DNA of 64,000 bases from a bacterium. GTDB lineage: Bacteria > Hinthialibacterota > Hinthialibacteria > Hinthialibacterales > Hinthialibacteraceae. Location: contig CAXXMV010000006.1 of NCBI GenBank assembly GCA_963662285.2, forward strand, positions 896,001 to 960,000, in the 5' to 3' direction. Position numbers and translations under genes: made by a program. The stretch's first letter is position 1. The number at the start of each line of letters is the position of its first letter. The notes under the pieces were generated by a model. That model was given only the letters and a program-made list of their open reading frames with translations. It was not told the DNA's origin and ran no database searches. Below are positions 18,344 to 55,294 of this stretch, one piece after another.

Positions 18344-21300
18344 ATGAGAACAACAACACGACTGATTATATCTAATCCAATCATTTGTTTGATCATATTA
18401 TTAACCTATGCTTCCAGCGCAGTTTGCTCCACTCTTGATATGATGGCTGATATATCGAAGCCAGTAGTTACCGAATTCGCGGAATATCAACCTGAATTGA
18501 TTGATATCACACCATCGGTTGAGCCATACAAAATCGCTGATGATTTCAGTAATGTTTGGAATTTCGATCAATTTCAATTTTCGGATGAACAAAAGCGGTT
18601 GCTTCTCGAAAATGGTTTCGTCGCCGTGCAAAGCGATGATAAGGAGATGTATGAGATTTACAACCGGGCGCTTAAAGAGAATACGCCTATCTTTGTTACG
18701 GTAGACGCCCTGCTTCATGCTTTCCACGAACAATTCGATTACATTCTGCGCACCCTCGAAACCGACAGGTTCATTTCTCATATACAACAGATGACCATCG
18801 CCCTGATCGATGGCTCATTGGAGCAATATAACGAGGCCGCCGATTCCCGCGTTAAAGAAGCAGCGCGCAAAAACCTCGCCTTTTTCTGTGTTGCGCTTGC
18901 CATGCTTGATGCTGACTATGCTGCTCCCGCATTGGTCGCGGAACTGGTTGCGTCTGAATTGCAACTCATCGACGCTCACAATAGCATGACGCATTCTCCG
19001 TTGCGTGGTTATGCGGAAGACTACACCCAGTACGTCCCGCGTGGGCACTATACTCTTTCAGAAGACCTGAAGCGCTATTTCCGCGCCATGATGTGGTATG
19101 GCCGAAGCACGTTTCATAACAAGGAAACAGCATTCTTAGGCATTACGCATGACATGGCGGAAATGGAAACCATTCAGGCCTTGCTGGTTACTCAATTGAT
19201 GAACATATCATCCATAGGCGACAATTCGGTTTTGGATCTATGGCGACAAGTATACCTTCCCACAGTCTTCTTCGTCGGCCAATCCGATAACCTTAATATC
19301 GACGATTACACCAGCGCTGCGCTGGATGTCTACGGCGCAGATTTCACCACCCTACCCGTAGATCAATTCAGCGACGCTGATAACCTGGATGCTTTCATGA
19401 ATTACCCCACCCGCCCGGCGTCGCAAATCAGCGCGGATGTCTGGGGCGGTGGATTCAGCATCATGGGTCAGCGTTTTATCCCCGATTCCTACATTATTGA
19501 TAAACTGAATTTTCTTGAAGAAGCCCGTTTACCCAGCGGTTTGGATGTCATGTCCGTATTAGGCTCAGAGCGCGCCAAAGAGATACTGACTCAATCCGGT
19601 TTATACACAGAGATGTATGCAGAGAAGCATGATAAATTGTACCAGGAATTCTTGGATAAAGATGAATCAGTCTGGGCCCAAAATGTATATTGGAACTGGT
19701 TATATTGCTTAATGCCCATGCTGGCCGACAAGGAAGAAGGCTTCCCCTTTTTCATGCAGAACGACGCATGGCGCGACAAGGATTTATCCTGCGCCCTGGG
19801 TTCATGGGCTGAACTGCGGCACGATACGATTTTATATGCCCGGCCTAGTGCTGTCGGTAGTGCGGATAACTCATCTAATGCTTACAAATCGGAGTACGTC
19901 GAACCAAATCCCTGGGCTTTTGGTCGTCTAGCATCCTTAGTGCGCTATACCATTGATGGACTAAATAATCTTAACCTTATTAAAGATTTCAAATTTTCGG
20001 ATAGAATAAATGATCTGTATGAGATTTCATCATCATTACAAACTATCTCTTTGAAAGAACTGACAAACCAACCTTTAACAATCAATGAATGTAAATTTAT
20101 CCGTGGAATTGGAGATCCTTTGACATTGTTGTGTACTATCTTTGACGAGGAAGATGATAATTATTTTCCTGATGTACGTCCCGATGGAGAGAACATGGAT
20201 GATATGTCGTTAATTGCTGATATCCATACTGACTTGATAATTGGAGAAGCCTTGGAAATTGGCGTAGGTCGCCCATTAACGATATACGTCATAATCGGAG
20301 AAGGGGATAATTTGTCGATTTCCGTGGGATCAGCTTTTTCCTATTACGAATTCGGTCAACCCATGAATGACCGGCTGACCGATGAAGCATGGCGTAAAAT
20401 GCTGAATGAATCAGAGCAGCCGCCGCAACCAAGTTGGGTGAGCAGTTATATGGGAAATAATAATACACCGGATAATATTGATAAGAACGATAGGATAAAG
20501 AGGATATCCTCACCTGTTAGAGAAATGAATTATCTCATTTCGCCCTCTCTGCTTGCACAAGGAGAAAATCTAACGGCCCGGTTTGTTTTTGATGCAACAG
20601 AAATATATAGAAATATCGAATACTATGAAAAATATAATTATCCTTGCTATATACCCGGTATGGATTCTTACTTCGTCCAAATTATTTTAGGGGATCGTAT
20701 TCTAGTTATTGAACTCGAAGAAGATGTTCTAACCGATGAACCTTTCGATTATTCCGCCGTCATAAATACGGACGACTGGCCAACCGGAACCTATGATCTA
20801 TTATTCTATAGCCCCACCAATCTAGCGATTTACGCAAACAAGCAGTTCACGGTTTATGAAAGCGTCGAGCAAATTCCTACCTTAACTCCAACATTCACCC
20901 AGACGCCAACTCCAACTCTAACACCTATACCAACCGCGCCCCCTAATCCGGTTTATATGACGGATACCATGAATGATTCCCAATCGATAGTCTATGATTT
21001 CGATCCACCCTGGCAACGGGATATCATTATTCGTTGGGATTTCACGAAACAATATCAGAGTTATATGATAATGGTGAAAGTAAATGATAATGGTGAATTC
21101 CAGAATCTAGGCGAAACTGTCGGGAGTGAGAATTTCTTCGAGTGGAGCATCGATAATAAATATGGCCAAATCATTGCAGAAGAGTTTTTGGATGGACCTC
21201 AACTAAATACCGATTACACCTTCTCCATCTATGGGAGCAATAGGCGTTACTATTGGTTTTTATGTGAATCTTTCACCTTTCATTATAAAATTGATCAAAC

Positions 21301-21406
21301 GGCGCCCACGCCCACATTAACTCCATCCCAGACGCCAACACTCACGCCGACACCTACGCCGACATTGCCCCTGGTCAGCGTTGATGATTGGTTTTTATAT
21401 GATTGA
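18344..21406 (+). CDS. Secreted DUF3160-domain protein with Thr/Pro linkers and C-terminal VDDWFLYD tail
   Basis: LLENGFV, FVTVDALLHAFH, DYTQYVPRGHYT..YFRAMMWYG and LGSWAELRHDTILY match my recollection of DUF3160; two (TPT)n linkers; start at ATG 18344 after a G-rich RBS. Confidence 0.75.
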   Translation: MRTTTRLIISNPIICLIILLTYASSAVCSTLDMMADISKPVVTEFAEYQPELIDITPSVEPYKIADDFSNVWNFDQFQFSDEQKRLLLENGFVAVQSDDKEMYEIYNRALKENTPIFVTVDALLHAFHEQFDYILRTLETDRFISHIQQMTIALIDGSLEQYNEAADSRVKEAARKNLAFFCVALAMLDADYAAPALVAELVASELQLIDAHNSMTHSPLRGYAEDYTQYVPRGHYTLSEDLKRYFRAMMWYGRSTFHNKETAFLGITHDMAEMETIQALLVTQLMNISSIGDNSVLDLWRQVYLPTVFFVGQSDNLNIDDYTSAALDVYGADFTTLPVDQFSDADNLDAFMNYPTRPASQISADVWGGGFSIMGQRFIPDSYIIDKLNFLEEARLPSGLDVMSVLGSERAKEILTQSGLYTEMYAEKHDKLYQEFLDKDESVWAQNVYWNWLYCLMPMLADKEEGFPFFMQNDAWRDKDLSCALGSWAELRHDTILYARPSAVGSADNSSNAYKSEYVEPNPWAFGRLASLVRYTIDGLNNLNLIKDFKFSDRINDLYEISSSLQTISLKELTNQPLTINECKFIRGIGDPLTLLCTIFDEEDDNYFPDVRPDGENMDDMSLIADIHTDLIIGEALEIGVGRPLTIYVIIGEGDNLSISVGSAFSYYEFGQPMNDRLTDEAWRKMLNESEQPPQPSWVSSYMGNNNTPDNIDKNDRIKRISSPVREMNYLISPSLLAQGENLTARFVFDATEIYRNIEYYEKYNYPCYIPGMDSYFVQIILGDRILVIELEEDVLTDEPFDYSAVINTDDWPTGTYDLLFYSPTNLAIYANKQFTVYESVEQIPTLTPTFTQTPTPTLTPIPTAPPNPVYMTDTMNDSQSIVYDFDPPWQRDIIIRWDFTKQYQSYMIMVKVNDNGEFQNLGETVGSENFFEWSIDNKYGQIIAEEFLDGPQLNTDYTFSIYGSNRRYYWFLCESFTFHYKIDQTAPTPTLTPSQTPTLTPTPTPTLPLVSVDDWFLYD

Positions 21407-21414
21407 TAAAGATA

Positions 21415-21447
21415 GATGGGATACGGTTTAGCTATGACCCATCTTAC
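21415..21447 (-). repeat. Degenerate GTAG-type REP-like palindrome
   Basis: Minus strand GTAA-GATGGGTC-ATAGCTAAACCGT-ATCCCATC. Confidence 0.5.
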
Positions 21448-21451
21448 TTGG

Positions 21452-21647
21452 CAAGCGGATCAGCGGTTTGATGAACACTTGGAAGAGTTGAAGAAAGGCC
21501 GTTAAAATGGGCGTCCCTTTGAAAGAGGTCATGAAAGAAATTTCCTCTGAACGCCAAAAATGCATACAGGCCAAAGCGGACGAATATATCAAAGAATATC
21601 AGACCCTTCAGGAGTTGCGTAAAGGGCGTAAATCGCCAACCAGATAA
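21452..21647 (+). pseudogene. Remnant of a RelE/HigB-type toxin (C-terminus only) plus XRE antitoxin (N-terminus only)
   Basis: ..QADQRFDEHLEELKKGR* (stop 21503-21505), then ATG 21507 MGVPLKEVMKEISSERQKCIQAKADEYIKEYQTLQELRKG, which stops where the HTH should start. Confidence 0.65.
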
Positions 21648-21689
21648 TATGCAGCCAAAAAATAAGCGCACGAGTATGACATCATTGTT

Positions 21690-22130
21690 TTACCTAAATA
21701 TTTTATCGAGATGATGTCGCAGATGGCGCAGGTAGTCTTTTACTATGAAATCCAAAGTCACCGGCTCTGCTTTTCCGATGTTGCATGGAGCGCTGGCGGC
21801 CTGGTCGGGAAGGCATTGGCACACGCGGCATAAGTGATGGTTGTAAGCCGCCCAAAGCGTCACCAACGCATCCCAGGGCATTCCGTTGTATTGCTGAATC
21901 CTCACCCATTCATTTTGGTCGTAAATTGGAAACTGATCGGCTGCGCCATACGCAGCCCGGACAAAGCGCTGGTGGTTGTTGGCTGCCGAGTCTATTAGAT
22001 GTCCCAGAATCTCTTTTTTCGACCATGCAGTGGTTGAGGATTTAATCTCAACATCATTCTGATTCATGCGGGATAATTTTGGTTCAAACGTCTCAATGGT
22101 AGAACGGATTTGGGTTGAGGCGTCTTTCAT
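21690..22130 (-). CDS. DinB-family protein
   Basis: WSKKEILGHLIDSAANNHQRFVRA; DYLRHLRHHL. Confidence 0.85.
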   Translation of the reverse strand: MKDASTQIRSTIETFEPKLSRMNQNDVEIKSSTTAWSKKEILGHLIDSAANNHQRFVRAAYGAADQFPIYDQNEWVRIQQYNGMPWDALVTLWAAYNHHLCRVCQCLPDQAASAPCNIGKAEPVTLDFIVKDYLRHLRHHLDKIFR

Positions 22131-22228
22131 GGCAGGTTCCTTTCATTTCATAACATGATAAAAGATATAATGATATTGAGGATGATTATCAACAGCATTC
22201 TTACTTCAATCCCTAATCAGGGATGTAT

Positions 22229-23344
22229 TCAATATAAGTCCCATCCAATCACATCGGTGGTAAAATCACGGGAAAGAATGTAAAAAGCCACTTCGGGACG
22301 GTAATACAATGGGTCGTTAGGTAGTTCAACCATTGGTGAATAACCGATTAGCGCCCACTCTCCTTCCTCCAATTCAAATCCAAAACTATCCGGCCAATTA
22401 GTACCTGCATCGCCGCCCTCAAGTTCTGGATCATTATCACAATATAAGTAAGTCATAGGCTGGTCGGGTAGAAATTCATTCCAAGTCGTCCGGCTATTGA
22501 AAACCAGTGAAGGGTGAAACGGGTCTTCCGGGATTTCATCCAGATATCCGAAATGCACCAAAGGTTTTAACACGCTGTTTTTGGTGCGTTCTCCTCCTTC
22601 CACGCCTTCAAAGACATCATCAATTCGTTGTATTAGATGGCTATCATCATCCCAGAAATCAACCAGAAGAACGCCTTTTTCAGTGCGCAGTCTTTCAATA
22701 GCTCTCCCGATCTGCATCATATTTTCTTTAGATTTTTGGAGATATTCTTCAGCATTTTTCGGTTGAGATATAACTTGACTTTTATGAACGGTGAGATTTC
22801 GAGTTCGTGATCGGTCATAGGTTTTATTCTCTCCCGGACTGATCAAAACCCACTCATCCATCTGTACATAAAGGCTTAACATGAGTGTGAAATAATCAGT
22901 CTGATATTTTGTTTCGTTGATATTAATTGTGCTTTCTTCATCAAAATATATATAAGTATTAAAATCTGGATCGGAATCCTCTGGAATAAAAGGATCAATG
23001 GGTATTACATCCAAATAGCCGAAATGAACCAATGGCTGTAAGACGTCGAGCATGGTTCTGGGTCGGTCGCTTGGATTGCCGACATTTTCAAATTCTTCAT
23101 GCAGCCGCTTTTGACCGATTTCCGAATCATCGTCGATCAGGTCTACAAGTTTAACGCCTCGCTCTTCTTCAAAGCGGATAATAGCATCGCCGATTTTCAG
23201 CATATCACTCAATGCTTGTTCCACTTGGGAATTGGTCTCTTGAGATACAGCATTCAATGAAAATAAACAGTAGATACACATGCAAACAATAATCTGAAAT
23301 ATACAAATAGACTGATGTACCTGTTTAACTTCTTGAGATTGCAT
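22229..23344 (-). CDS. Secreted protein with two tandem pseudopilin-head-like domains and C-terminal VIGWDLY tail
   Basis: Sec-type signal; internal duplication (IG.AI....E.GV.LVD..DDD..VL.PLVHFGYLD.IP.DPF..EW.LI). Confidence 0.65.
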   Translation of the reverse strand: MQSQEVKQVHQSICIFQIIVCMCIYCLFSLNAVSQETNSQVEQALSDMLKIGDAIIRFEEERGVKLVDLIDDDSEIGQKRLHEEFENVGNPSDRPRTMLDVLQPLVHFGYLDVIPIDPFIPEDSDPDFNTYIYFDEESTININETKYQTDYFTLMLSLYVQMDEWVLISPGENKTYDRSRTRNLTVHKSQVISQPKNAEEYLQKSKENMMQIGRAIERLRTEKGVLLVDFWDDDSHLIQRIDDVFEGVEGGERTKNSVLKPLVHFGYLDEIPEDPFHPSLVFNSRTTWNEFLPDQPMTYLYCDNDPELEGGDAGTNWPDSFGFELEEGEWALIGYSPMVELPNDPLYYRPEVAFYILSRDFTTDVIGWDLY

Positions 23345-23934
23345 AATAACATCTCCTTAAGTCATTGAGGATTTGACGTAATCTATATTGATAAATCCCT
23401 CTTGGCATAATTAAATTTCTGCATGATTCGATAGAGGTTATCAAAAGGTTATACTTATTTGAAGTAAAATTTTGTTTGAATTCTCGTCTTTGGAGGATTA
23501 TTTACCAACCTCATAAACGCACGATGTTTTTGATACATCTTTAGATAAAGAGATTAAATAGTCGGTCGAGCAATTGTTGGGGTGAAGATAGATAATACGA
23601 TAACTAACTATATAGGAACTTATACCACCTACGACGTTTAGCCTTCTATGTACATCTTTTCTGGTGATTTGTGCAGTTAACCTTTAATAAAAGGCTGGAC
23701 GAGAAGTAAATCAATAGTATAATTTATAGCGCTATAGAGTTCATTATGGCCATAAAATGGAAATATTTTGCCAATAGATGGTAGATGCATAATGTCATAT
23801 CCAAATTATCGGCCTGAATTCGCCAAATAATGTAAGCAAATCGTTTCAATAACAATAAATTAACTTAATTGATCTTTTTAGTATGCTAAAATAGTATTCC
23901 AGAGTCATTTTTAACATAAATAAAGGCGGTACAG

Positions 23935-32638: not shown

Positions 32639-33784
32639 ATGAGACATTTTATTGTTGTTGCATTCTTTTTAGTATTGGCCATTGCCGGGAGTTCTTACTC
32701 TCAAGAAGATCAGGTTCTTCAAGTAACTGATTTTGAAGATGAACTGGAATGGGTGTATAGCGGCGGGTCAATCATGTACTCATTTGTAGAATATCAACCC
32801 TTTTATGATGATACCATCACCCCTCATAGTGGGGAAGCATCATTGTTGGTTGAGTACGACAATACGGGGGGGGAATGGCAGTGGTCGCAAATTAATTTTC
32901 CCGGTGAACTCGGAGCGGTTGATGCAACGGGGATGACCGAACTGCATATCTTTGTCTATGTTGTTCCAGGAAGCACGGGGTATTCTGATACTGGATTTGA
33001 AATGCGCATTGAAGCGGGTGGGGCTAACCTCGGTTTTCAATCTACGGATGTTACCGGCGAATGGGTGGAACTGGTCTGGCCGATTGATACATTGACCTCA
33101 ACCGGTAATCTGGGCGCATTGACCTACTTTGGAGGATTTATTGCTCCCCGTGGTGACATTTCCGGGCAGGTTTATATTGATGATATATATTTCACCCGTC
33201 CTGCTGATGTCCCTGAAGTAGAAATAGTGACTATTTACGGATTCAATGAAGAGGATCCTGATACACTTTTAACAGCTGGTTGGATTTCGGATGATGCCGG
33301 TCTTTCGGTTCCACTATTAGGTGAGGGTGAAGTTGAACCTTCCGAAGGATCCAACTATATGGCGTTTACGCTTGGCGAAGGATGGACCAATGTCATCCGC
33401 ACCGAAAGCGCATTAGAAGACTTTGACCGCTGGGGTGATGTCAAGGAAATCATGGTTGACGCCCGTATGAGTGAAGCGGTTGTCGGGTGGGGCGCCCAGT
33501 CTGCATTAGTTATCCAAACCGGCAGTGGGGGTTGGGATCAGTATGCAGAGGCGTCTTATAGGTATGCGGTAGATGAGTGGCAAACGCTGGTTTGGGTTGT
33601 GGATATGGAAAAACATGCTGCTGCTTTTGTTGAACCTGCTGAAGGGGAAGATGCTCCCTGGATGATTATTCGTTTCTCAACCAATAACGGAAGTGAGGAT
33701 GCCGGGAAATTGGTATTCTTCGATAATTTCCGGGTTGTCGTTACTAAGCAGGCGGCTGCTGTTCAAGAGTGGAGTTTATATTAG
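32639..33784 (+). CDS. Acidic secreted protein with two carbohydrate-binding-like beta-sandwich domains and VQEWSLY tail
   Basis: Signal peptide; two modules, DFE..HSGEASL..W..L.W..VYIDDIYF and GFNE..SEGSNY..WQTLVW..VFFDNFRV. Confidence 0.65.
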   Translation: MRHFIVVAFFLVLAIAGSSYSQEDQVLQVTDFEDELEWVYSGGSIMYSFVEYQPFYDDTITPHSGEASLLVEYDNTGGEWQWSQINFPGELGAVDATGMTELHIFVYVVPGSTGYSDTGFEMRIEAGGANLGFQSTDVTGEWVELVWPIDTLTSTGNLGALTYFGGFIAPRGDISGQVYIDDIYFTRPADVPEVEIVTIYGFNEEDPDTLLTAGWISDDAGLSVPLLGEGEVEPSEGSNYMAFTLGEGWTNVIRTESALEDFDRWGDVKEIMVDARMSEAVVGWGAQSALVIQTGSGGWDQYAEASYRYAVDEWQTLVWVVDMEKHAAAFVEPAEGEDAPWMIIRFSTNNGSEDAGKLVFFDNFRVVVTKQAAAVQEWSLY

Positions 33785-34312: not shown

Positions 34313-35965
34313 TTAGATTTGCAATTCTCCTCTTGAATTCGCCGCGCCAATTTTTTTAATCAACATATCTGCCTCTTTTAAATCATTATCTGTTTTAAAG
34401 GGAGGTAAATTATCTAGTATATGCTGAGCTTTTTTATTCTGATTAATATCTATCAGGCATCGAGCCATTGTTAAATAGGGTTGGAGAGTTTCACTTTTTT
34501 TCTCTTGCTTCTGAAATATATCAAAAATGTTTTGAGCCAAGTCCGGGTCATCTGATTTGAATGAATATTCAATTATTTGGCTCGCAATTGCGCCTGAGCC
34601 GGGTTGTTTTTCAATAACTTTATGAAGATGCGAAATCGCTATAGATTTTTTTCCTGCAGCCCACAAATGAGCTGACTCACGTATAGCATGAAGCGCTTGA
34701 TAACGTGGATGAACGGGCAGTTTAACTCTAAAGTAGGTGCGGTCTTCATCGAAATCAAATATTGCCTGCGGGGAACCGTTTTCTTTCATAATTCTTATTA
34801 TTTTAGGTATACCGGTTCCCCTTCTTTCAGCCAATCTCAATTCTTTGAGAAATTCACCTATACGTCGATTTCTGGCAGGTACCGGAGGAACTGAATTATC
34901 GGAATCAAAATGCTCTAGTTTGATTCCCGGCATAGGTCCGGGATAACTGATGATTTCCATTCTATCCGGATATAAATAAACTTTGGTTGGTTCGGGAGGG
35001 AAATCATATCCTCTATGGTATATTGCATTTACAATAGCTTCTTCCATAGCCTGGTATGGGTATGGAAATGTTCTTTCGACTTCAGCTCGACCAGGTATTT
35101 TCTGTAATAAACTTCCACCAAGTCCTTCAAGATAATTAAGGCATGATTTTATCTGTTGAGCTAGTGGACCTACGAATTTTCTTTCTTCAATTAAATCACC
35201 GCCAGCATCATCGCCAAATTGAACAACTTCGATAAAGGCGCCTTCAAAAAACATCTCGGGCGATTCATTAAAAAAAAGCAAGGCGACATTTCGTGGAACT
35301 TCATGGTTATTAATTGGAATGGTTAGATGTAATTTTCTATAAGTGTCATGCGCTTCAATCGATAGATCGTTGTTGGCTAAATAACTTCTGATATCGATCA
35401 GGAATTGTTTGACCAAAGGTAGAGAAATATCTTCCACTTTACTATTTAAGTTCCGTCTTGAATCATAAGGAATCTTAGCGGCTTGTTCGAGTAATTGACG
35501 TTTCAAATCACCGGTTGCTTCAATTGAAGATGATCCGGAACGTATGTAGTATGTTGTCCCTGTCCTATCGCGTTTTGGCGCCTCGTAAGGTCGATTATCA
35601 CCAGCTGGCGCCCATATTATAACAATACTTTGGCCTTGAAATTCCTCTATTTGAACAATGGGTATATATTCAGGAGAAATAAAACCTTTACTATTTCCTA
35701 CAATCTCTCTTTGGATTTTATCAAGGTCGCAGTTGTTTAAGCCTGTTGGTGGTAAAATAGCATTGCCATTCTGATCTGTTTTTACGCCAATAATAATGTA
35801 ACCTCCATTGAGGTTTAGAAAATCATTGGCATATGCGCAGATCGTATTTATGGTAGATTTCTTTACTACTTCATTCCAAGACTCTTTAAATTCAAGCCGG
35901 GTCTGCTCAATAGATTTTTGGTGTAGTAAATCTGATATATTCAATGGGATTGCTTTGTCCGCCAT
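34313..35965 (-). CDS. Schlafen/AlbA_2 domain + HATPase_c_4 protein with helical C-terminal domain
   Basis: EQTRLEFKESW, ICAYAND..GGYIIIGV, YYIRSGSS; AMEEAIVNAIYHRGY, RNRRIGEFLKELRLAERRGTGIPKI; AT-rich. Confidence 0.85.
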   Translation of the reverse strand: MADKAIPLNISDLLHQKSIEQTRLEFKESWNEVVKKSTINTICAYANDFLNLNGGYIIIGVKTDQNGNAILPPTGLNNCDLDKIQREIVGNSKGFISPEYIPIVQIEEFQGQSIVIIWAPAGDNRPYEAPKRDRTGTTYYIRSGSSSIEATGDLKRQLLEQAAKIPYDSRRNLNSKVEDISLPLVKQFLIDIRSYLANNDLSIEAHDTYRKLHLTIPINNHEVPRNVALLFFNESPEMFFEGAFIEVVQFGDDAGGDLIEERKFVGPLAQQIKSCLNYLEGLGGSLLQKIPGRAEVERTFPYPYQAMEEAIVNAIYHRGYDFPPEPTKVYLYPDRMEIISYPGPMPGIKLEHFDSDNSVPPVPARNRRIGEFLKELRLAERRGTGIPKIIRIMKENGSPQAIFDFDEDRTYFRVKLPVHPRYQALHAIRESAHLWAAGKKSIAISHLHKVIEKQPGSGAIASQIIEYSFKSDDPDLAQNIFDIFQKQEKKSETLQPYLTMARCLIDINQNKKAQHILDNLPPFKTDNDLKEADMLIKKIGAANSRGELQI

Positions 35966-37396: not shown

Positions 37397-38017
37397 TTAC
37401 AGATCGTTGACATTGCCGGGTTGTCCGGCGAATCCCTGACCGAGGATGCCTTTGTCGCAGGTCATGATATCGCCAATGCTAATTAGACCATTGGATGAAT
37501 CATAGGCCATCCATCCCATAAGGCGTTGGGGTGATTGGATATACCATCGATCCGGTCCGGGGCTGCGTGCGACGTAGCGTGCGGTTGGATCGGCGTTGGA
37601 GGCGGCGCCCTGGTTATTGACTTGCCGCATATAGGCGATATTGCGGTAATGGTAGACTCCATCCATTACCGCTTCCCAGGCGGCGCTGTTTGGACCGGGG
37701 TTCTCTATGGGTACGAATGGATCGAAAAAAGCGCTGGAAGAGATATAAGAGTTAGGTGTGGTAAGCGATCCCCATACCCGGAATCCCCGTTGATATACTC
37801 CGGCGTTAGCCCATTCGTTGGGATCAAGAATGCTGCGGTTATGATCCAGGGAATACATTTCCAGCGCAGTTCGTATGCTGCGTAGATCCGCCAGGGATCG
37901 GGATATTTTGGCGCGCACCTGAGCGTTTAAGAAATTTGGAACTGCGATAGCCGCCAGGATGCCGATGATGGCGACAACGATCAACAGTTCGATCAAAGTA
38001 AAGGCTTTTGGTTTCAT
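37397..38017 (-). CDS. Prepilin-type N-terminal cleavage/methylation domain protein (GspG-like pseudopilin)
   Basis: KAFTLIELLIVVAIIGILAAIAVPNFLNAQVRAK, LTTPNSY, DPF, SPGPD, YDSSNGLISIGDI. Confidence 0.85.
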   Translation of the reverse strand: MKPKAFTLIELLIVVAIIGILAAIAVPNFLNAQVRAKISRSLADLRSIRTALEMYSLDHNRSILDPNEWANAGVYQRGFRVWGSLTTPNSYISSSAFFDPFVPIENPGPNSAAWEAVMDGVYHYRNIAYMRQVNNQGAASNADPTARYVARSPGPDRWYIQSPQRLMGWMAYDSSNGLISIGDIMTCDKGILGQGFAGQPGNVNDL

Positions 38018-40413: not shown

Positions 40414-43389
40414 ATGTTTGAATGGATGAATAAGCACAAGAAAGACATCATGGCCTACACATTGTGGTTGGTCATACCCTCGTTTATTGTTTTGTATGGT
40501 TATGGGGAGTGCCAAAGCCCTCAGCGCTTTGAATGGGTGGCTAAGGTTAATGGAGAGAAGATCAATGAGATTGTATGGTCTCAATGGTTGAATAATATCC
40601 AGGACCGCTATCGCCAGTATGGCCAGGAAATTGACCAGGATAAACTGCAAGCGCAAGCCTTGGATGCATTGATTACAATGTCGCTCAATAAGCAGAAGGC
40701 CGATAAGTTTGGCATTGCCACTATCGACCAGGAAGTGGCGGAGGCTATTACAGCCTTACCTTATTTCAAAGATAAGGGCGGCAACTTCGATGTTAATATG
40801 TTCCGGGGAATTCTATCGCAATTTGATAAGAATCCCATCCAATTTGAAGAAGAACAGCGCGAACAACTCACTCGAACCAAAGTTCGTTCTTTAATCTCAA
40901 ATTCCATCTTCCCCGCAGCCAGCACCGTTAAACGCACTGAAGAACGGGAAAAGCAGAAGGTCGAGGTTGATTACCTGGTCTTTGAGCCTTCACAGTATGT
41001 TGATGATGTTGCGCCTGATGCAGACCAGATGAAGACTTTCTTCGAGAAAAACGTGGAAGATTATCGCATCTCCGAACAGCGTGATGTCGAATACGCCCGT
41101 TTTTATCCTGCTCAGTTTGTCAGGGAAGCTACTTATACGGAATACCAATTAACTCGCTTCTTTGAAGAGAATCGCGAAAAGTATCGCATTTCTGATTCTG
41201 TCATGGTGGAGTATTTGACCTACCGCACCGCAGATTTCTCTGACAAAGCGGAAGTCGACGAAGCCAAAATCGAGCAGCATTTCGAGGCTCATAAGTCGTC
41301 TTATAATCATCCTGAGCAAGTCAAAATCCGTTATATCGTGCAACCGATGGAAGATTTGCTTGGTACGCAAGACGTCTCAGAAGAAGAGATCAAAAAATTC
41401 TACGACGAGAACATCCAGCGTTATACACATAAAGAACAGGTTGAAGCCAGCCATATTCTTTTGAAAGTGGCGCCCGACGCCAGCGCGGACGATGATGAAG
41501 CGGTCAAAAACCGCATTCTGGAAATCCGTGATGAAATTGCCAAAGGTTTGTCGTTTGAAGATGCGGCTATCAAGTATTCAGAAGGTCCCAGCGCGCCTAA
41601 AGGCGGAGAACTGGGAACATTTGGCCGTGGCCGGATGGTTCCGCCATTCGAGAAAGCGGCTTTTGAATTGCCTCTCGGGCAAGTATCCGAACCGGTAAAA
41701 ACCCGTTTCGGGTATCACCTGATCAAAGTATCTGACCGTAAAGAAGAAGGCATCGATGCGCTGGAAACAGTCAGTGATGACATCGCAAAATTAGTTAAGA
41801 GAAGAAAAGCGATTGATGCGTTCCGTCTGGAGATGGAAGCATTGGATTCGCTTGATTCGCTTGAAGGACGATACGAGATTAAATCCACCGATTGGATTGC
41901 GCGCGGTGGAGACATTGAAGGTTTGACCTCCGGCGAGCGGTCGATGGTGAGTACGGTTGCCTTCAGCGCAAATAAAGAGAAAAAAATATTAGTCGCTGGT
42001 TATCATACCAACGATAACGTTTTTGCCGTTGAGCGTGTAGGACGGATGGAAAAACGGGCCATGACGTTAGAAGAGGCTCGTGAAAAAGTTGTTGAAGAAG
42101 CAAAAGTTGCTGTTGCCGAAGAACTGGCCAAAGCAGCCGCTCAAGCGGATATTGCTCGAATCAAGAGCGCTTCATTGGCGTTGGATGTTATTGCTTCTGA
42201 ACGCAACTTGACTTTGGAAACCACAGATTACTTCAGCAGAGACGCCGCATCGGTTAAAGGTTTCGGCGCCAGGCCTACCGAGTTGATGAGCATCGCCTTC
42301 ACATTGAACGAAGGCGAATCAGGCGGCCCGGTTAAAATATCATCCGGTTATAATATCTTTCGCCTGGTGGCTCGTAATCCTGAACATATTCCAGAGATTA
42401 ATGAAGTTATTCAGGATGTTCAGAGAGATTGTTTGCAGAAGGAATCTGAACAACTGGCTCGTTTGGCTGCACAAAAATTTGGCGATGACCTTTATAACAG
42501 CCAGTCATCAATTGATAAGATTGCGGCTGCGCAAAAAATTGATTGGGGAACAACGGGATTGTTTACCATGCAGGATCCTATTCCCGGCATCGGTCAGCAA
42601 ATGGTATTGAATTATAACGCATTCCAGTTAGAAGGCGTTGGAGAGATTTCCGATCCACTACCAGTCACTCCCCGTCAGTCCTATGGTCAAAATGATAAGC
42701 AGCCCGTGCAGGCTTATTACATTCTACGCTTGACCGAGATCAAGGAATCCTATCTTCCAGAGATGTCCGAAGTGGCAGAGGATGTTGAAAAAGATTACCG
42801 CTTGCTGTTGGCTGAGGACGTTGCTGAAAAACATGCCGCTGAAGCGCTTGATCAGATCAAGCAGAAGATTTCATCTGCATCACCACTATCAGCGACTAAG
42901 GCTGTAGAATTGAAAGAGTTTGAAGATGTTGATAACGCAAAGACTATAGCCAAGGGCGGAAAATATCGCGATTCAACTTCCATCACTGGAAATGGCTACG
43001 TCGCCGGTATTGGCGGCAAACCGTGGTCTTTCACAAAAACCGCACTTGCTTTGAAAGCAGGTCAGGTTTCCGGTCTGGTTAAGTGTTATAGAGATAAAAA
43101 AGATAAAGATGGCGCCCGTGTTCAGGGACCATTGCTGGGCGTGTATATTCTGCAAGTTCTAGGTAAATCCGCTGTGGATGAAACAAGCGCTCCAAGCAAG
43201 GTCAGCGAACAATTGCAGAACAGCTTCAAGTCCATAGCTTTTGACGCCTGGATCGATGAAGTCAGCGCCGAAGCTACTGCCAATATCGAATACAACCGCA
43301 AGTTCTTGTATCCTGAAGAAGATGAAGATGCAGTTGTGGATGAAGAAGGTATGGAAGAAAAAAGTGCATCGGATGCTTCCACTTCTTAA
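40414..43389 (+). CDS. Extended PpiD/SurA-like periplasmic chaperone with parvulin PPIase domain
   Basis: N-terminal TM anchor, VAKVNGEKI SurA_N region, ASHILL..FEDAAIKYSEGPSAPKGGELG..MVPPFEKAAF..VSEPVKTRFGYHLIKV; 991 aa. Confidence 0.85.
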   Translation: MFEWMNKHKKDIMAYTLWLVIPSFIVLYGYGECQSPQRFEWVAKVNGEKINEIVWSQWLNNIQDRYRQYGQEIDQDKLQAQALDALITMSLNKQKADKFGIATIDQEVAEAITALPYFKDKGGNFDVNMFRGILSQFDKNPIQFEEEQREQLTRTKVRSLISNSIFPAASTVKRTEEREKQKVEVDYLVFEPSQYVDDVAPDADQMKTFFEKNVEDYRISEQRDVEYARFYPAQFVREATYTEYQLTRFFEENREKYRISDSVMVEYLTYRTADFSDKAEVDEAKIEQHFEAHKSSYNHPEQVKIRYIVQPMEDLLGTQDVSEEEIKKFYDENIQRYTHKEQVEASHILLKVAPDASADDDEAVKNRILEIRDEIAKGLSFEDAAIKYSEGPSAPKGGELGTFGRGRMVPPFEKAAFELPLGQVSEPVKTRFGYHLIKVSDRKEEGIDALETVSDDIAKLVKRRKAIDAFRLEMEALDSLDSLEGRYEIKSTDWIARGGDIEGLTSGERSMVSTVAFSANKEKKILVAGYHTNDNVFAVERVGRMEKRAMTLEEAREKVVEEAKVAVAEELAKAAAQADIARIKSASLALDVIASERNLTLETTDYFSRDAASVKGFGARPTELMSIAFTLNEGESGGPVKISSGYNIFRLVARNPEHIPEINEVIQDVQRDCLQKESEQLARLAAQKFGDDLYNSQSSIDKIAAAQKIDWGTTGLFTMQDPIPGIGQQMVLNYNAFQLEGVGEISDPLPVTPRQSYGQNDKQPVQAYYILRLTEIKESYLPEMSEVAEDVEKDYRLLLAEDVAEKHAAEALDQIKQKISSASPLSATKAVELKEFEDVDNAKTIAKGGKYRDSTSITGNGYVAGIGGKPWSFTKTALALKAGQVSGLVKCYRDKKDKDGARVQGPLLGVYILQVLGKSAVDETSAPSKVSEQLQNSFKSIAFDAWIDEVSAEATANIEYNRKFLYPEEDEDAVVDEEGMEEKSASDASTS

Positions 43390-47230: not shown

Positions 47231-47240
47231 CGCTACTTTT

Positions 47241-47340: not shown

Positions 47341-47366
47341 TCAGCATTATAAGTAATAGTGTAAAA

Positions 47367-50637: not shown

Positions 50638-50677
50638 CAATACTAATGATTGATTGCATGTTCTTTTCATTCTTTTG

Positions 50678-50719
50678 ATAACTACTTATTAATAACTACT
50701 TATTAATAACTGCTTAATA
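50678..50719. repeat. 14-bp tandem repeat x3 (ATAACTACTTATTA)
   Basis: Two exact copies plus ATAACTGCTTAATA. Confidence 0.75.
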
Positions 50720-50875
50720 ATTTTATGTTCAAAATCTCTTCCTGAAAACAAAATATTAAAAAAAATCACTAAGCTAAGCAGTTGATTTAACTTGCCTAAT
50801 GGTAATTATGTGTAAAATTATTTATACGTATATTTGACTTTTGATATTAAACTTACCAATATATAGATATATATA

Positions 50876-50899
50876 AGACTAGATGATATCATCTAGTCT
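50876..50899. promoter_or_regulatory. Perfect 24-bp palindrome just upstream of the RBS (candidate operator or 5'-UTR hairpin)
   Basis: AGACTAGATGAT|ATCATCTAGTCT, 7 bp before AAAGGAG of the 50921 gene. Confidence 0.6.
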
Positions 50900-50920
50900 A
50901 TTTCTGAAAGGAGTTTTCTT

Positions 50921-51967
50921 ATGAGAAAACTATTTGGTTTTTTGGTTTTGGCTGCTCTTGTTGCAGCTCCAGTAATCGGTTTTGCGCAAGGCACTAATTC
51001 AGGCGCAACCATAACAGTACCTTTTGTTGCTAATACGCCAGTTATCGATGGTCAGATTTCTGATGGCGAATGGGCTATGGTTGGCGTTGCCGAAGGTACA
51101 TGGTCTTCGCATGATAGTGATGCTGTTGCTACTATGGCTACTACAGTTAAAGTATGCTATAGCGTTGATGCTGTTTATTTTCTTTATGAATGTGAAGATG
51201 AACTGGTACAATCCATAGCTACTGGTACTGAGCGTTTACAGGGAATGACTGATGTTGACGGTCAAATGGATGGTACTTTTCCATGGCAAGGCGAGACTGA
51301 TTATGTAGCTCTTTACGTTGATCCATCCAACTATGCTGATGATGCTCCTGATGCTGAATTATACAGTTACGCCATCCAGTGGGAACCTTCAATCACTGCC
51401 AAGAATGAAAAAGATGCTGCTGGCAATAGTTATTTTTACACCGAATCCGGTAAATGGGGCGGTTTCAGAGCTCTCTTAAATCCTCCAGTTGTTGATGCTA
51501 ATGGCGCAACTCATTTTTGGGGTGGCGGCGGAGCATGGGACGGCCAAGGCATCGAAATCGTTGATGGCGCTACAGCTGATGGATTTATTTGTGAAGTTAA
51601 AGTTCCCTGGGCAAGTTTCAATGGTTATTGGAGACGCTCAATGGAAAGTGGCATAGATTTAGGCGATAATTTGTACGAAGCTTTCATCAATGGTGGTGAT
51701 ACTGATCCTTACCTGTCAGAGTGGGGCGGTATGAAAGTGCTTAATATTGCTGCAGACGATACAGTGACGCCTGTTGGATCAGGTATCGTATCAGGCATGC
51801 CAATGGAAGGAACTACCTGGAAAGTACAATTCTGCCGTTTCTCGAATGGCGCATTGGGTTATGTAAACTGGGTTGGCGACACTGGCGGATTCGTAAGCCG
51901 TCCATTCGGAAACCTGGTATTTGGACCTGCCTCCGGCAGCGCTGTTGAAAATGCAATGCTTCACTAG
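50921..51967 (+). CDS. Acidic secreted CBM9/DOMON-like protein with VENAMLH tail
   Basis: Signal peptide; PVIDGQISDGEW, VKVCYS.DAVYFLYECED, CEVKVPW, WKVQFCR. Confidence 0.65.
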   Translation: MRKLFGFLVLAALVAAPVIGFAQGTNSGATITVPFVANTPVIDGQISDGEWAMVGVAEGTWSSHDSDAVATMATTVKVCYSVDAVYFLYECEDELVQSIATGTERLQGMTDVDGQMDGTFPWQGETDYVALYVDPSNYADDAPDAELYSYAIQWEPSITAKNEKDAAGNSYFYTESGKWGGFRALLNPPVVDANGATHFWGGGGAWDGQGIEIVDGATADGFICEVKVPWASFNGYWRRSMESGIDLGDNLYEAFINGGDTDPYLSEWGGMKVLNIAADDTVTPVGSGIVSGMPMEGTTWKVQFCRFSNGALGYVNWVGDTGGFVSRPFGNLVFGPASGSAVENAMLH

Positions 51968-52002
51968 AATTAATTGCTTAGTACTTATGATTAAAAACAA
52001 GA

Positions 52003-52038
52003 GAACGGTATGCCTTAGGGCATACCGTTCATTTTTTT
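52003..52038. terminator. Intrinsic terminator between convergent genes
   Basis: GAACGGTATGCC-TTAG-GGCATACCGTTC-A-T7. Confidence 0.8.
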
Positions 52039-52058
52039 CAATATTAATCACAGATACT

Positions 52059-53414
52059 TTATTGATGATCAACGTTTTTCTTAAAACGGGGCAGTTTACG
52101 GGAATACAAAAAGAGTTGCATCATCATGAGGGATGATGCGAGCATCATGACGGCTAGGATATAGAAGGTGGCGTGGAATCCCAACCAGCGGTACAGGCCA
52201 TATCCTAACATGGGAGCGATTATTCCCCGGATTCCCCAATTTACGTGATGGATGCTGGTGTAAACCGGGGCGTCATCATCAGTCTTGCAGAAGAACAGGC
52301 AACCCAGCATAAAGTTCATCTTGCCGCCAGCGAATAGAAATCCGATCAATGCGGAAGCGATGTATACCAGTTTCATATCCCAGGCGAAAGCGTATAGCAA
52401 TGGATGAAGAATCCAGATGCCATGCAGCACCATGCGCTGCCACATTGGATTGGGCTGCCGGTCGATTGTACGCCCCCACCAACGCAGCGTCAGGACTCCG
52501 ACGATATTGTGAATAACTCCGGCGGTCAGCGCAATTTGAAGATAATTGGCTTGCAGCACATCGACGACGTATAGTACGTATATCGGCGTTCCCGCCAGAT
52601 TGGCCAATCCCCCGATGAAAAAAGCAATCTCATAACGGATGAAGAGATTGTCTGATTTCAGGGTTGATATTATTTCTTTATATGAAACTAAGGTTTTGCG
52701 CTTGGCGCCAAGTTCTGAAATCTTTTCGTTGATTCGGGAAAGACAATAGGCGCCCAGCAATCCGCAAATAGCGGCAAAGGGAAAGATGTAGCGATAATAG
52801 TATGGATTAATATCCAGCAGTTTGCCCGCCGCCAGCGAAGTGAACACCGTTGCGATAAGCGCATAGGAACGAACATGTCCGGTTATGGTTCCACGGTGGG
52901 AATCGGGGTAAACGTTCTTAAGCAAGGCGGCGTACATCGGTACGTGCATAAATATGAAAAATAGCCCGGTGGCGGCGATGCAGCAAAAAACCAAAGGACT
53001 GAATCCCCAGGCCAGCAGGATAAAAATCATTTTGCAGGGGATCGACATGCATAGGATATAGGAAATATTGCGGCGCGTCCTGATCAGGTGGGGCATAGCG
53101 AAACTGAATAATGGCCCGATATGAACAAAAACCATGATCAGCACTAATTGGAATTCAGATATGCCGATAGTTTTACGCGCCACAAATCCCAGCATGTCGT
53201 AACAAATGCCGATAAAGATTCCTTCCAGCATCATGTAACGGACGTCCCAAAAATAAGCGGATTGGGCGCGCCGGGGCAGCGAAGCAACAAAGGACATGCC
53301 GGTTTTTCCAGTTCTTAAAGCATAATAATATAATAATAAAATATAGAATACGAGCAGGTAGAGGAAAACCAAACCCTCATGCCATGAAGATATCTCTTTG
53401 CGCCATAACATCAA
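52059..53414 (-). CDS. MFS-type transporter
   Basis: About 12 hydrophobic segments; YPDSHRG and WWGRTIDR loop motifs. Confidence 0.75.
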   Translation of the reverse strand: MMLWRKEISSWHEGLVFLYLLVFYILLLYYYALRTGKTGMSFVASLPRRAQSAYFWDVRYMMLEGIFIGICYDMLGFVARKTIGISEFQLVLIMVFVHIGPLFSFAMPHLIRTRRNISYILCMSIPCKMIFILLAWGFSPLVFCCIAATGLFFIFMHVPMYAALLKNVYPDSHRGTITGHVRSYALIATVFTSLAAGKLLDINPYYYRYIFPFAAICGLLGAYCLSRINEKISELGAKRKTLVSYKEIISTLKSDNLFIRYEIAFFIGGLANLAGTPIYVLYVVDVLQANYLQIALTAGVIHNIVGVLTLRWWGRTIDRQPNPMWQRMVLHGIWILHPLLYAFAWDMKLVYIASALIGFLFAGGKMNFMLGCLFFCKTDDDAPVYTSIHHVNWGIRGIIAPMLGYGLYRWLGFHATFYILAVMMLASSLMMMQLFLYSRKLPRFKKNVDHQ

Positions 53415-53734
53415 ACGTCATGTAATATTTCTTCAATATTCTTCGTTTTCAGCTTCTTGTTCTATCAGTTTAGCGGATCAATATAATATGGTGATTATGA
53501 TAAACTATTGGATTCATAAAAGGGAAGCACCCTGGTATTAATTACTGATAATGATAAGGTTAACCCAACCTTACAATGAATCCGCATCTCAGTTAATATC
53601 GATGATTAGCACAATTTAATAATATAAGGAGGTGCTTTTGGAAAAATAATATATATTTATCCTGTATTGGTTTACTAATTGAAAACAAAAAATTTATAAT
53701 GTTGAAATATTTTAATGAAAAAGGAGAGTAAAAA

Positions 53735-55294
53735 ATGAAACGAGTTTTATTCGTGTTGTGCGGCATTGCGCTGATTGCAGCGCCTTCGTTCGCCACAACA
53801 AAAACAGTTGGAAAATCCGGCGCCGACTTCACGAGCATTCAGGCGGCTATCGATTCATTTACTGAAGCGGAAGTTACTGATGGAACTCCTGATGTTGTCG
53901 AAATCATTGACGGCGAAATGTATGATGAACAGGTTATTATCGGAAATTTGATACCTGATCCTGATGGTTTATCGGAAGGATATCTGGATGATGCCATTGA
54001 TCTGGCCCTGAGAAGCGATTCATTTACACTTAAGGGAGCCGATCCTGAAAATCGTCCCAGCATCAATCCAATAGAAGCTGAATTTGCCTCTTATGGCGTT
54101 TTCACCAATGATTCGGGCGATAATTTCGTCGCCACTTTGTCTTTTATGGGAAAAGATATCAATATCGAAAATATTGAAATTCTTCAGGCATCTGAAATCA
54201 ACGATGATCAGTATGGCATGAATGGCCAGGCTGGCAACATGGTCTTCAAGAATGTACTGTTCGCCCATTCCGGCGCCAAGGCGCCTGGCGAAGCCTTCGT
54301 CAACTTGAATAATGACATCTATATCGCTGATAAAGGTTTTGATAACTCTTATACATTCATTGACTGCACTTTTGATGCTGCAGTTGACGGCGCGAGAAAC
54401 GACAACGTCGATACATTCTACTTCCACGGTTACGGTCAGGGAGATGCTGATGAAGCAGGTATCAACATAGAAGATGTCAGCGTTAATGTAGTATTCGAAG
54501 GATGCTCCTTTTTAAATAGCGATACAATAACCGCTATTCGCGGTAATGCCCAAGCCAACCATGTTTCGTTTAGCAATTGCTTTATTTCCAACAACAAGCA
54601 AGGTTTGATAGGTTCAGGTAAGGGAACATTTACGGTTGATAGCAGCATCTTTTACAACAACCAGCAGAATGGCGGTGATGCGGATAATGACTATACCTGT
54701 TTAGGAACTACCGGACGTAGTGGATTTACTCCAGCATTGACAGTTACAAACTCACTGTTCGTCGATAACTTATCCGCAGATGCAGATAGTCTGGCAGGTC
54801 TCCTCGGTTTTGAATTCCGCGCGGCAGCCATCCGTATTAAAAATGATGGAACCGACCCGGATATCACTATAGAAAATTGCACGTTTGTGAACAATCCTAT
54901 TGCGATTCGTTTTACTGATGGCAGTGGACGTCCTCGAAGCGCTTCCGTAAACAATAACATTTTCCAGAATTGCAATTCTTCCATTCTAACGGCGGATGAC
55001 GCCGCCGACAGTTATTTCAATTCAGTAGCAGACGGCGATCCAGTTACTGCACTGGTTGTTAGCGGCGCTAATAACGTTTTTGACGGCAACAACGCCGTTG
55101 TAGAAGACGCAGCGTTATTGCCAAACGTTTCGCTCGAAGGAACTGAAGCATCAGTGACATTCAATAATCCTTCAATTGATCCCAGCGATCCATTCTCCGG
55201 ACCTCCATACACCGTCGCATCAGGCGCGCCAGCCGATGTAGGCGCTAACCTGGGTGGAACTACAGCTGTTAGTGAATTTATGATTTTTGAATAA
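53735..55294 (+). CDS. Acidic secreted parallel beta-helix (pectin-lyase-like) protein with VSEFMIFE tail
   Basis: Signal peptide; VGKSGADFTSIQAAID..Y.EQVII; repeated FIDCTF, FEGCSF, FSNCFI, IENCTFVNN, VNNNIFQN strands. Confidence 0.7.
   Translation: MKRVLFVLCGIALIAAPSFATTKTVGKSGADFTSIQAAIDSFTEAEVTDGTPDVVEIIDGEMYDEQVIIGNLIPDPDGLSEGYLDDAIDLALRSDSFTLKGADPENRPSINPIEAEFASYGVFTNDSGDNFVATLSFMGKDINIENIEILQASEINDDQYGMNGQAGNMVFKNVLFAHSGAKAPGEAFVNLNNDIYIADKGFDNSYTFIDCTFDAAVDGARNDNVDTFYFHGYGQGDADEAGINIEDVSVNVVFEGCSFLNSDTITAIRGNAQANHVSFSNCFISNNKQGLIGSGKGTFTVDSSIFYNNQQNGGDADNDYTCLGTTGRSGFTPALTVTNSLFVDNLSADADSLAGLLGFEFRAAAIRIKNDGTDPDITIENCTFVNNPIAIRFTDGSGRPRSASVNNNIFQNCNSSILTADDAADSYFNSVADGDPVTALVVSGANNVFDGNNAVVEDAALLPNVSLEGTEASVTFNNPSIDPSDPFSGPPYTVASGAPADVGANLGGTTAVSEFMIFE

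Follow-up and report, generated by a model that had tools for sequence, protein, structure and literature searches.

We identified a nine-residue sequence at or within two residues of the C terminus of 176 proteins encoded by a bacterium of the Hinthialibacterota (genome G000; 7.29 Mb, 8 contigs, 92.5% complete). It was noticed in a stretch of 64,000 nucleotides, hereafter called the window (GenBank assembly GCA_963662285.2, contig CAXXMV010000006.1, positions 896001–960000, designated C6:896001–960000), in which an earlier reading, made from the sequence alone, had described five signal-peptide proteins with alignable C-terminal tails. The tail follows a defined motif, is strictly terminal, is carried by acidic signal-peptide proteins, is independent of the fold that precedes it, occurs in two phyla, and is replaced in some orthologs by known anchoring modules. 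In our judgement the chance falls just short of even that two uncultured phyla sort folded exoproteins by a free C-terminal code of 9–10 residues, with a logic like that of peroxisomal targeting signal type 1 (PTS1), with lineage dialects of the types T-x-V-x-D-W-x-L-Y and P-V-E-L-S-V-F-S-A-D, and with a receptor or export route outside the bacterial sorting systems described to date.

The open reading frame (ORF) set of G000 started from 9,626 ORFs with a minimum length of 90 residues, of which 5,246 were left after longest-first removal of overlaps; since a C terminus is set by the stop codon alone, errors in start codons leave the tail counts untouched. An initial regular expression matched 116 ORFs, and the scores of an iterated position matrix were bimodal, with 173 ORFs scoring more than 12, 46 scoring 0–12 and approximately 5,000 scoring less than 0. 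The core motif was defined as [T/V/S]-x-[V/I]-x-[D/N/E]-W-x-[L/I/M/V]-[Y/F/H], no more than two residues from the stop. This core was terminal in 176 of the 5,246 ORFs, lying exactly at the end in 145 and being followed by one extra residue in 30 and by two in one, which bears out the earlier statement that neither a transmembrane (TM) helix nor a basic cluster is present. The extra residue had been described as Asp or Glu; these occur among the 31 extended tails (Glu 11, Asp 4, Glu-Glu 1), but so do Asn (5), Gln (3), Arg (3), Lys (2), Tyr (1) and His (1). In the sequence logo (n=176), the far positions were occupied by Pro at −10 (37), Thr, Val or Ser at −9 (114, 30 and 21) and Val or Ile at −7 (135 and 34), the near positions by Asp, Asn or Glu at −5 (63, 41 and 24), Trp, Phe or Tyr at −4 (163, 9 and 4) and Ser, Met or Glu at −3 (55, 36 and 35), and the end by Leu, Ile, Met or Val at −2 (107, 40, 13 and 11) and Tyr, Phe or His at −1 (104, 33 and 25). 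A further 22 ORFs with scores of 6–12 were weaker carriers, and all 22 had a signal peptide.

We considered whether the tail could be an effect of chance or composition, or the closing strand of a domain that the carriers share. A strand of the type (F/I)DN(F/V)x(V/I) directly precedes the tail in about one-sixth of the carriers, by a rough estimate from listings. The controls, however, gave a different picture. When the last 40 residues of each protein were shuffled, no match was found in 18 of 20 replicates, and one and two matches were found in the remaining two, compared with 176 terminal matches in the real set; internal matches to the core numbered 18 in 2,082,757 positions; and control patterns at the DNA level gave 0–1 matches per genome, compared with up to 58 for the tail. 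The 150 residues upstream of the tail fell into 113 BLAST clusters, 85 of which were singletons, and the tail was kept in orthologs. The reading as an artefact is already refuted by these controls and deserves next to no credence. The same clusters support the earlier proposal of a portable, strictly terminal tag, as opposed to the last strand of one shared domain.

The tail also appears to lie outside the preceding fold. Positions −17 to −13 are rich in Leu, Val, Ile and Phe, and positions −12 to −10 are occupied by Gly, Ala, Glu, Asp and Pro; we read the former as the probable last strand of the preceding fold. The linker is usually a few residues long, with long Pro/Thr linkers in some carriers. 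An AlphaFold2 model of one YncE-like propeller carrier, based on a 14-row alignment (mean pLDDT 89.5), placed the last strand at residues 401–408 and residues 409–421, including the tail, in a coil with a pLDDT of approximately 70. Among the 14 orthologs of this carrier, Trp418 was the sole invariant residue of the tail.

Signal peptides were called with a crude home-made predictor, which was positive for 39% of all other ORFs. As the sequence-only reading had expected of a profile scan of the proteome, the terminal matches were strongly enriched on signal-peptide proteins (163 of 176 carriers versus 1,976 of 5,048 other ORFs; odds ratio 19.5), and several of the 13 misses look by eye like unrecognised signal or twin-arginine (Tat) peptides. 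A later hydrophobic helix, beyond the N terminus, was found in only 4 of the 176 carriers. The mean net charge per residue was −0.083 for the carriers and −0.009 for the remaining signal-peptide proteins. The relation was steep in signal-peptide proteins that have no TM helix: the tail was present in 47 of the 59 below −0.10 net charge per residue, in 44 (plus 10 weak carriers) of the 77 between −0.10 and −0.08, and in none of the 743 above −0.02; several untailed acidic proteins resemble, from their C-terminal sequences, outer-membrane barrels ending in Phe. The tail thus marks a compositionally distinct class, suggesting that the carriers are the part of the exported proteome that leaves the periplasm, a location judged from composition. 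Of 20 carriers drawn at random from the 170 outside the window region, 12 had no Pfam family at an E-value of 1e-4; the families found were CotH with LTD (four carriers), Laminin_G_3 (one), peptidase C1 (one) and Big_9/cadherin with a periplasmic-binding fold (one). The window carriers included a DUF3160 protein, a CBM9-like protein and three proteins without a family. Any Pfam family was detected in 11 of the 25 scanned carriers, all of soluble-domain types; separately, some carriers other than the modelled propeller look WD40-like by sequence.

By translation, all five C termini described earlier are present in the window (..VSVDDWFLYD, ..TTDVIGWDLY, ..AAAVQEWSLY, ..GSAVENAMLH and ..TTAVSEFMIFE, each directly before a stop codon):

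21374–21403, + strand: tail VSVDDWFLYD (motif plus one extra Asp), score 22.5; ends a 1033-aa DUF3160 protein (ORF 18305–21406, stop codon 21404–21406) after a Pro/Thr-rich linker.
22232–22258, − strand: tail TDVIGWDLY, score 17.1; ends a 371-aa signal-peptide protein without a Pfam family (ORF 22229–23344).
33755–33781, + strand: tail AAVQEWSLY, score 20.3; ends a 381-aa signal-peptide protein without a Pfam family (ORF 32639–33784), preceded by the last-strand motif FDNFRVVV.
51938–51964, + strand: weak variant SAVENAMLH (Ala for Trp), score 9.4, below the threshold of 12; ends a 348-aa CBM9-like protein (ORF 50921–51967).
55262–55291, + strand: tail TAVSEFMIFE (Phe for Trp, plus one extra Glu), score 18.6; ends a 519-aa signal-peptide protein without a Pfam family (ORF 53735–55294).

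As members of one motif, four of the five were clear (22.5, 17.1, 20.3 and 18.6), but VENAMLH was only a weak variant. The end TPTAVGIPLR of the GH5-like/DUF5060 protein, which had been offered as a possible degenerate tail, scored −20.2 and is not a tail. The internal control within the window did hold: the GH42-like, two GH172/DUF2961, GH43-like and nucleoside-hydrolase-like proteins have a signal peptide and no tail, and are near neutral. The strong acidity attributed to the carriers was likewise found, with net charges per residue of −0.080 to −0.129 for the window carriers and −0.020 to +0.008 for the tail-less enzymes.

We then analysed the distribution of the tail over genomes. A DNA pattern requiring Thr at −9 gave 58 matches in G000, compared with one in each of two shuffles, and matched all 35 genomes of the phylum of the window, with 0–1 matches for the reversed-pattern controls. 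A stricter pattern, applied to one genome per prokaryote species, matched 92 stretches. Among the 80 of these 92 that were listed, the assemblies with multiple matches were titled Candidatus Sumerlaeota, Candidatus Omnitrophota or plain ‘bacterium’, and single matches were scattered over common taxa, as expected by chance. The record titles for the lineage of the window (Omnitrophota, Sumerlaeota, ‘bacterium’) look inconsistent. A third phylum was considered and rejected; the two matches in a 1.1-Mb assembly titled Omnitrophota were internal to ORFs and not at ORF ends, indicating chance. Four assemblies titled Sumerlaeota fell in a second phylum of 75 genomes. For this phylum the Thr-requiring pattern was too strict, with any match in 41 of the 75 genomes. 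With a Thr-free pattern, for which clearly positive meant at least 5 matches and at least 4 above the control, 46 of the 75 were clearly positive (up to 52 matches versus 1 in the control), 24 were at background level (0–2 matches) and 5 more were ambiguous. The 24 background genomes consisted of a block of 18 (G046–G063) together with G085, G086, G108, G111, G113 and G114. By the same Thr-free criterion, 33 of the 35 genomes of the phylum of the window were positive, and G001 (2 versus 1) and G027 (5 versus 2) failed. At 18 loci from nine genomes of the second phylum, the tail ended 25 ORFs. DUF3160 did not serve as a tracer family, as it was found in only 7 of the 75 second-phylum genomes, none of which carried it with the tail. 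These scans of both phyla confirmed what the sequence-only reading says of similar tails in Sumerlaeota and Hinthialibacterota proteins.

In G046, which is without the Trp tail, two proteins ended in ..IPVELSAFSAD and ..VPAELSALSAD. The corresponding DNA pattern, P-[V/A]-E-L-[S/T]-x-[F/L]-[S/T]-A-x-stop, gave 14 matches in G046 and 7 in G047, with no match in any control; elsewhere it gave one real-looking match in G072, one non-tail match in G058 and none in 71 other genomes. The 22 ORFs recovered (e.g. loci L157, L160 and L207–L225), with a tail of the form [I/V]-P-[V/A]-E-L-[S/T]-V-F-[S/T]-A-[D/E/N]-stop, were mostly acidic and in 19 cases had a signal peptide by the crude predictor. By eye, E-L-S-V-F aligns with D-W-S-L-Y as an acidic residue, a large hydrophobic residue, Ser, an aliphatic residue and an aromatic residue, suggesting that the PxELSVFSAD tail may be the form that a code of this kind takes in that lineage.

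In several orthologs of carriers, the tail was replaced by another type of ending. The tail of the propeller carrier is replaced in one ortholog, P0133 (662 aa, 44% identity), by a Pro/Thr linker with TSP3 repeats and a dockerin, and two DUF3160 orthologs in G069 end, by our own reading of the sequences, in dockerin-like repeats. A VIT-vWA protein of G000 (803 aa; G000:C2:537179–539590, − strand, outside the window) has the Trp motif (..VPVNDWSIH) within the chain, and the 139 residues behind it resemble by eye a staphylococcal-nuclease-type OB fold; this protein may be a fusion formed after loss of a stop codon. In both G079 and G078, the ortholog of this protein closes with a motif, then a TM helix and an Arg cluster. 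The G079 ortholog matched the LPxTATN sortase-signal model weakly (22.5 bits; cut-off 32), and both orthologs gave sub-cut-off matches to the ‘marine proteobacterial sortase target’ family. The replacement of the tail by dockerin or sortase-type ends suggests that it occupies the place of the anchoring modules of relatives.

No existing model covered the tail on the scanned carriers, as the sequence-only reading had supposed: NCBIfam (E-values up to 1) and Pfam gave nothing on the tails of the five window carriers, and Pfam gave no C-terminal sorting domain on the 20 further random carriers. Full-text literature searches, covering main texts, returned no description of it. In the main text of the paper naming Hinthialibacterota (PMC9324843), neither ‘C-terminal’ nor ‘secretion’ occurs; the main text of the Sumerlaeota genome paper (PMC8092238) contains none of ‘C-terminal’, ‘secretion system’, ‘pilin’ and ‘type II’; and parts of a preprint by Haft (10.1101/2023.06.07.544157) contain none of ‘Sumerlaeota’, ‘BRC1’, ‘tryptophan’ and ‘Trp’. 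The same parts of that preprint define the tripartite design of sorting signals (motif, TM segment and basic cluster).

The tripartite signals (among them LPXTG/sortase, PEP-CTERM/exosortase, GlyGly-CTERM/rhombosortase and MYXO-CTERM) resemble the tail in being portable, strictly C-terminal and present in many copies on unrelated signal-peptide proteins with a short signature, and in the VIT-vWA ortholog the tail occupies the exact position of a sortase-type signal. Unlike the tail proteins, which stop 0–2 residues past the motif, they continue into a TM segment and a basic cluster, and they are served by a cognate sortase or exosortase; searches of G000 with the sortase (PF04203) and exosortase (PF09721) models gave no match, with positive controls, rhombosortase, myxosortase and archaeosortase being outside this search. 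A search of G000 for tripartite signals gave 79 matches, nearly all of them multi-pass membrane proteins by helix count, with no shared motif family. The C-terminal domain (CTD) of type IX secretion (T9SS) is a general export signal in Bacteroidota. In its type A (Por_Secre_tail) and FlgD_ig-type forms it is like the tail in marking a large share of the proteins leaving the periplasm (approximately 3% of ORFs here), and would likewise serve both export and attachment; it is unlike the tail in being a folded domain of approximately 70–100 residues. The CTD models PF18962/TIGR04183 and PF13860 matched none of the five window carriers (Pfam and NCBIfam) or the 20 random carriers (Pfam). In G000, FlgD_ig (PF13860) matched the flagellar FlgD and gave two weak matches, and with 0–4 matches per genome the FlgD_ig-type CTD family showed no expansion in G000 or in tail-less genomes. 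SprA_N, the only T9SS component searched, gave no match in G000, while 14 of 14 control genomes also gave none. An extra Omp85 translocator was rejected as well, as G000 has one Omp85 gene only. Type I secretion, which reads a C-terminal signal, differs in that its substrates have no N-terminal signal peptide, whereas the carriers mostly have one. Also comparable are the PTS1 (SKL-COOH) and KDEL-type codes, which are eukaryotic, serve another compartment and are read by TPR or membrane receptors; like the tail, they are very short, uncleaved-looking C-terminal peptides on many unrelated folded proteins, with no homology implied.

For the mode of action, we tentatively favour a minimal C-terminal docking or retention tag acting after export. 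Carriers would be exported by Sec, fold, and then leave the periplasm, with the free-ended nine-residue peptide placed a few residues beyond the last strand of whatever domain precedes it; the conserved Val/Ile, Trp, Leu/Ile and terminal aromatic residue would plug into a surface receptor, which would hold these strongly acidic exoproteins at the cell, in the manner of a dockerin or sortase signal elsewhere. Export itself seems not to need the tail, since the 18-genome tail-less clade keeps the pseudopilin family and the large TPR-secretin, and it is this retention of export machinery, together with the anchor-for-anchor swaps, that leads us to prefer docking or retention. Several observations weigh on the other side. 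No receptor was found among the families searched (pseudopilin, cohesin, TPR-secretin, sortase, exosortase and T9SS parts). Cohesin proteins are present in G048–G053, which are without the tail, and absent by this search in tailed G087. Nearly all strongly acidic non-barrel exported proteins are tailed, which resembles a general export signal more than a tag for a subset. A strict carboxylate clamp is unlikely, given one or two extra residues past the aromatic residue in 31 of the 176 carriers. Finally, the location of the carriers is deduced from composition, and the signal-peptide predictor also flags 39% of other ORFs.

Dockerin–cohesin pairing was considered for such a receptor. The dockerin, a duplicated calcium-binding module of approximately 60–70 residues, is like the tail a C-terminal addition after a linker on secreted proteins, and it replaces the tail in orthologs of two carrier families. 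It is unlike the tail in size and in calcium binding, the dockerin model PF00404 matched none of the 25 scanned carriers, and cohesin proteins do not co-vary with the tail: they were matched in 59 of the 75 second-phylum genomes without tracking it, and were therefore rejected as receptors. In G000 the cohesin model matched 12 times, and some of these matches fall in a cluster of giant paralogs. At G000:C2:1568700–1595100 (loci L203 and L204) lies a run of giant acidic secreted paralogs of 735–1,522 aa, bordered by FGE-sulfatase-like genes and two tail carriers. In most of the paralogs a cohesin-like domain is joined to a beta-propeller or FG-GAP/Kelch region, and four share the ending ..NDGQIRINLNYPE. 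At G000:C3:327247–331306 (locus L205), a gene for a 958-aa acidic cohesin-domain protein is directly followed by a gene for a 384-aa outer-membrane beta-barrel, and the two may be a surface-anchoring pair.

An alternative is that the tail is an export signal, in which the disordered terminal peptide hooks a pilin or pseudopilin and the folded protein is taken through a secretin as the filament grows. G000 is rich in such machinery, with 8 secretin genes, at least three type II secretion system (T2SS) clusters, a type IV pilus locus, a Tad locus and a TPR-STN-secretin locus, and it encodes 115 orphan GspG-like prepilin-type proteins (150–250 aa) with the C-terminal motif [S/T]-N-G-x-x-S-x-G-D-[I/V]. 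Pilin-type genes were the commonest neighbours of the carriers, being adjacent to 24 of 176 carriers compared with 63 of 1,068 control signal-peptide proteins (approximately 2.3-fold; odds ratio 2.5, Fisher p 6e-4); in 500 permutations of this adjacency the random mean was 7.3 and the maximum 17. Of 26 adjacent carrier–pilin pairs, 23 were on the same strand. The propeller–pilin pair appears to lie on one contig in five other assemblies, to judge from contigs of equal length, and carrier–pilin–carrier operons recurred in the second phylum. The window itself contains part of one such neighbourhood and a second prepilin-type gene:

1–1403, − strand: N-terminal part of a sixth carrier (685 aa; G000:C6:895346–897403), which ends in ..VEVNHWSLY (score 19.4) just beyond the left edge of the window.
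1452–2003, − strand: GspG-like prepilin-type protein of 183 aa, one of the 115 in the genome, lying on the strand of the sixth carrier and 48 bp upstream of it.
37397–38017, − strand: second prepilin-type protein, of 206 aa, with an N_methyl motif, divergent from the tail-less DUF5060 protein.

The marking of almost the whole acidic exported class, the lack of sortase or exosortase matches in G000 and the zero matches to SprA_N, with silent controls, also fit this reading. A precedent is provided by TcpF and CofJ, in which, according to the abstracts of PMC9565799 and PMC10120004, a short terminal export peptide is recognised by a pilin. As in the tail, that signal is short, disordered and terminal, has a critical aromatic residue and belongs to a Sec-exported folded protein; here the tail of the modelled carrier is a coil and carriers are enriched beside pilin-type genes. 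It differs in being N-terminal, with one operon-encoded substrate per pilus operon and with binding to the minor pilin TcpB or CofB, whereas the tail is C-terminal on approximately 180 scattered proteins and pilin binding is putative. A structure-based complex test of the propeller carrier with its pilin (own alignments, 1:1) gave a score of 0.02 against a mark of 0.32, which counts neither for nor against binding, the TcpB precedent being a trimer.

Phyletic evidence did not support a pilin-type reader. The pseudopilin motif was found in all 75 second-phylum genomes (8–74 matches), including the tail-less clade (8–47), which excluded the GspG-like family as the reader by presence or absence, and its count correlated only weakly with the tail count by the Thr-requiring pattern (rho 0.27). 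In addition, 152 of the 176 carriers have no pilin neighbour, and the dockerin and sortase-signal swaps fit an anchor better. We rate recognition for export by a pilin somewhat below docking or retention. Of the earlier proposal of an export or attachment signal read by a T2SS-like machine, the nature of the tail as a tag was supported; its role in outer-membrane export or attachment and its reading by a T2SS-like machine are putative, and the secretin and pseudopilin families also occur in the tail-less clade. The TPR-STN-secretin (1,057 aa) was non-discriminating, with homologs in all 75 second-phylum genomes, where they form reading frames of 1,000–1,900 aa; in G000 (C8:420426–423596, − strand, locus L189) it is clustered with a PilM/N fusion, a TPR protein and two cohesin-domain proteins. 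An uncharacterised 642-aa protein inside a T2SS cluster was also rejected, as this query found it in none of the 75 second-phylum genomes. No candidate among those searched shows the phyletic pattern of the tail; a reader that co-evolves with the dialects would be overlooked by presence and absence alone.

A further reading takes the tail as a site read by a PDZ protease or chaperone of the periplasm (CtpA/Prc-like, tricorn-like S41 or HtrA), and hence as a handle for processing, activation or quality control and not an address. Free hydrophobic or aromatic C termini, such as that of the tail, are a class of PDZ-domain ligands. The beta-signal of outer-membrane barrels and PDZ-binding ends (YxF sensed by DegS) likewise have a terminal aromatic residue with hydrophobic positions before it. 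By their C-terminal sequences, however, the apparent barrels of G000 end in Phe, whereas the tails end in Tyr (104), Phe (33) or His (25); none of the 25 scanned carriers belongs to a barrel family, and the modelled carrier is a beta-propeller whose tail follows the fold after a short linker. The PDZ proteins of G000 comprise four HtrA-like proteases, a CtpA-like S41 protease, a 1,197-aa tricorn-like S41-PDZ protein, RseP and a beta-helix protein, and the tricorn-like gene adjoins a carrier and a pilin gene. Nevertheless, PDZ models matched 14 of 14 control genomes, and proteases so widespread in bacteria do not explain a lineage-specific tag. Moreover, conservation extends back over nine residues, and variability at the position two before the end sets the tail apart from classical PDZ ligands. 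A PDZ recognition site is therefore improbable.

The last reading dispenses with a reader gene: the Trp/Tyr-rich end would insert into the outer-membrane interface or bind lipopolysaccharide or cations. Trp and Tyr favour membrane interfaces, the tests made revealed no reader gene, and the carriers are strongly acidic. In contrast, Thr/Val/Ser at −9, Val/Ile at −7 and Asp/Asn/Glu at −5 are conserved, and the PxELSVFSAD dialect of a sister clade differs widely; position-specific conservation and a second dialect look like codes for protein–protein recognition. Furthermore, a nine-residue peptide in which two or three side chains are hydrophobic would anchor weakly in a membrane, and we give this reading very little weight. 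The remainder goes to a mechanism not yet conceived.

What selects the folded proteins that diderm bacteria export or display, outside T9SS, is a long-standing question, and to our knowledge no linear signal is known for T2SS substrates. Here, a linear nine-residue tag marks approximately 3–4% of the proteome in two uncultured polymer-degrading phyla, yielding for G000 a list of the putative exterior proteome (176 strong and 22 weak carriers). New in this analysis are the genome-wide link to acidity, the map of the tail over both phyla with its tail-less clade, the PxELSVFSAD dialect, the replacement by dockerins and sortase-type signals, and the readers excluded. With the 18-genome tail-less clade and the two dialects as contrasts, phylogenetic profiling can uncover the reader. 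A portable tag, if it is one, might serve as a compact secretion or display tag, and if the PTS1-like reading is true, it would represent a new class of bacterial protein-sorting system.

Two other genes were noted in the window. One (40414–43389, + strand) encodes an unusually long PpiD/SurA-like periplasmic chaperone of 991 aa, with SurA_N and rotamase domains and a long acidic C-terminal extension. The other (34313–35965, − strand) encodes a Schlafen AlbA_2 and HATPase_c_4 protein with a TPR end; this domain pair frequently carries the annotation of a putative DNA-binding or defence-type protein.

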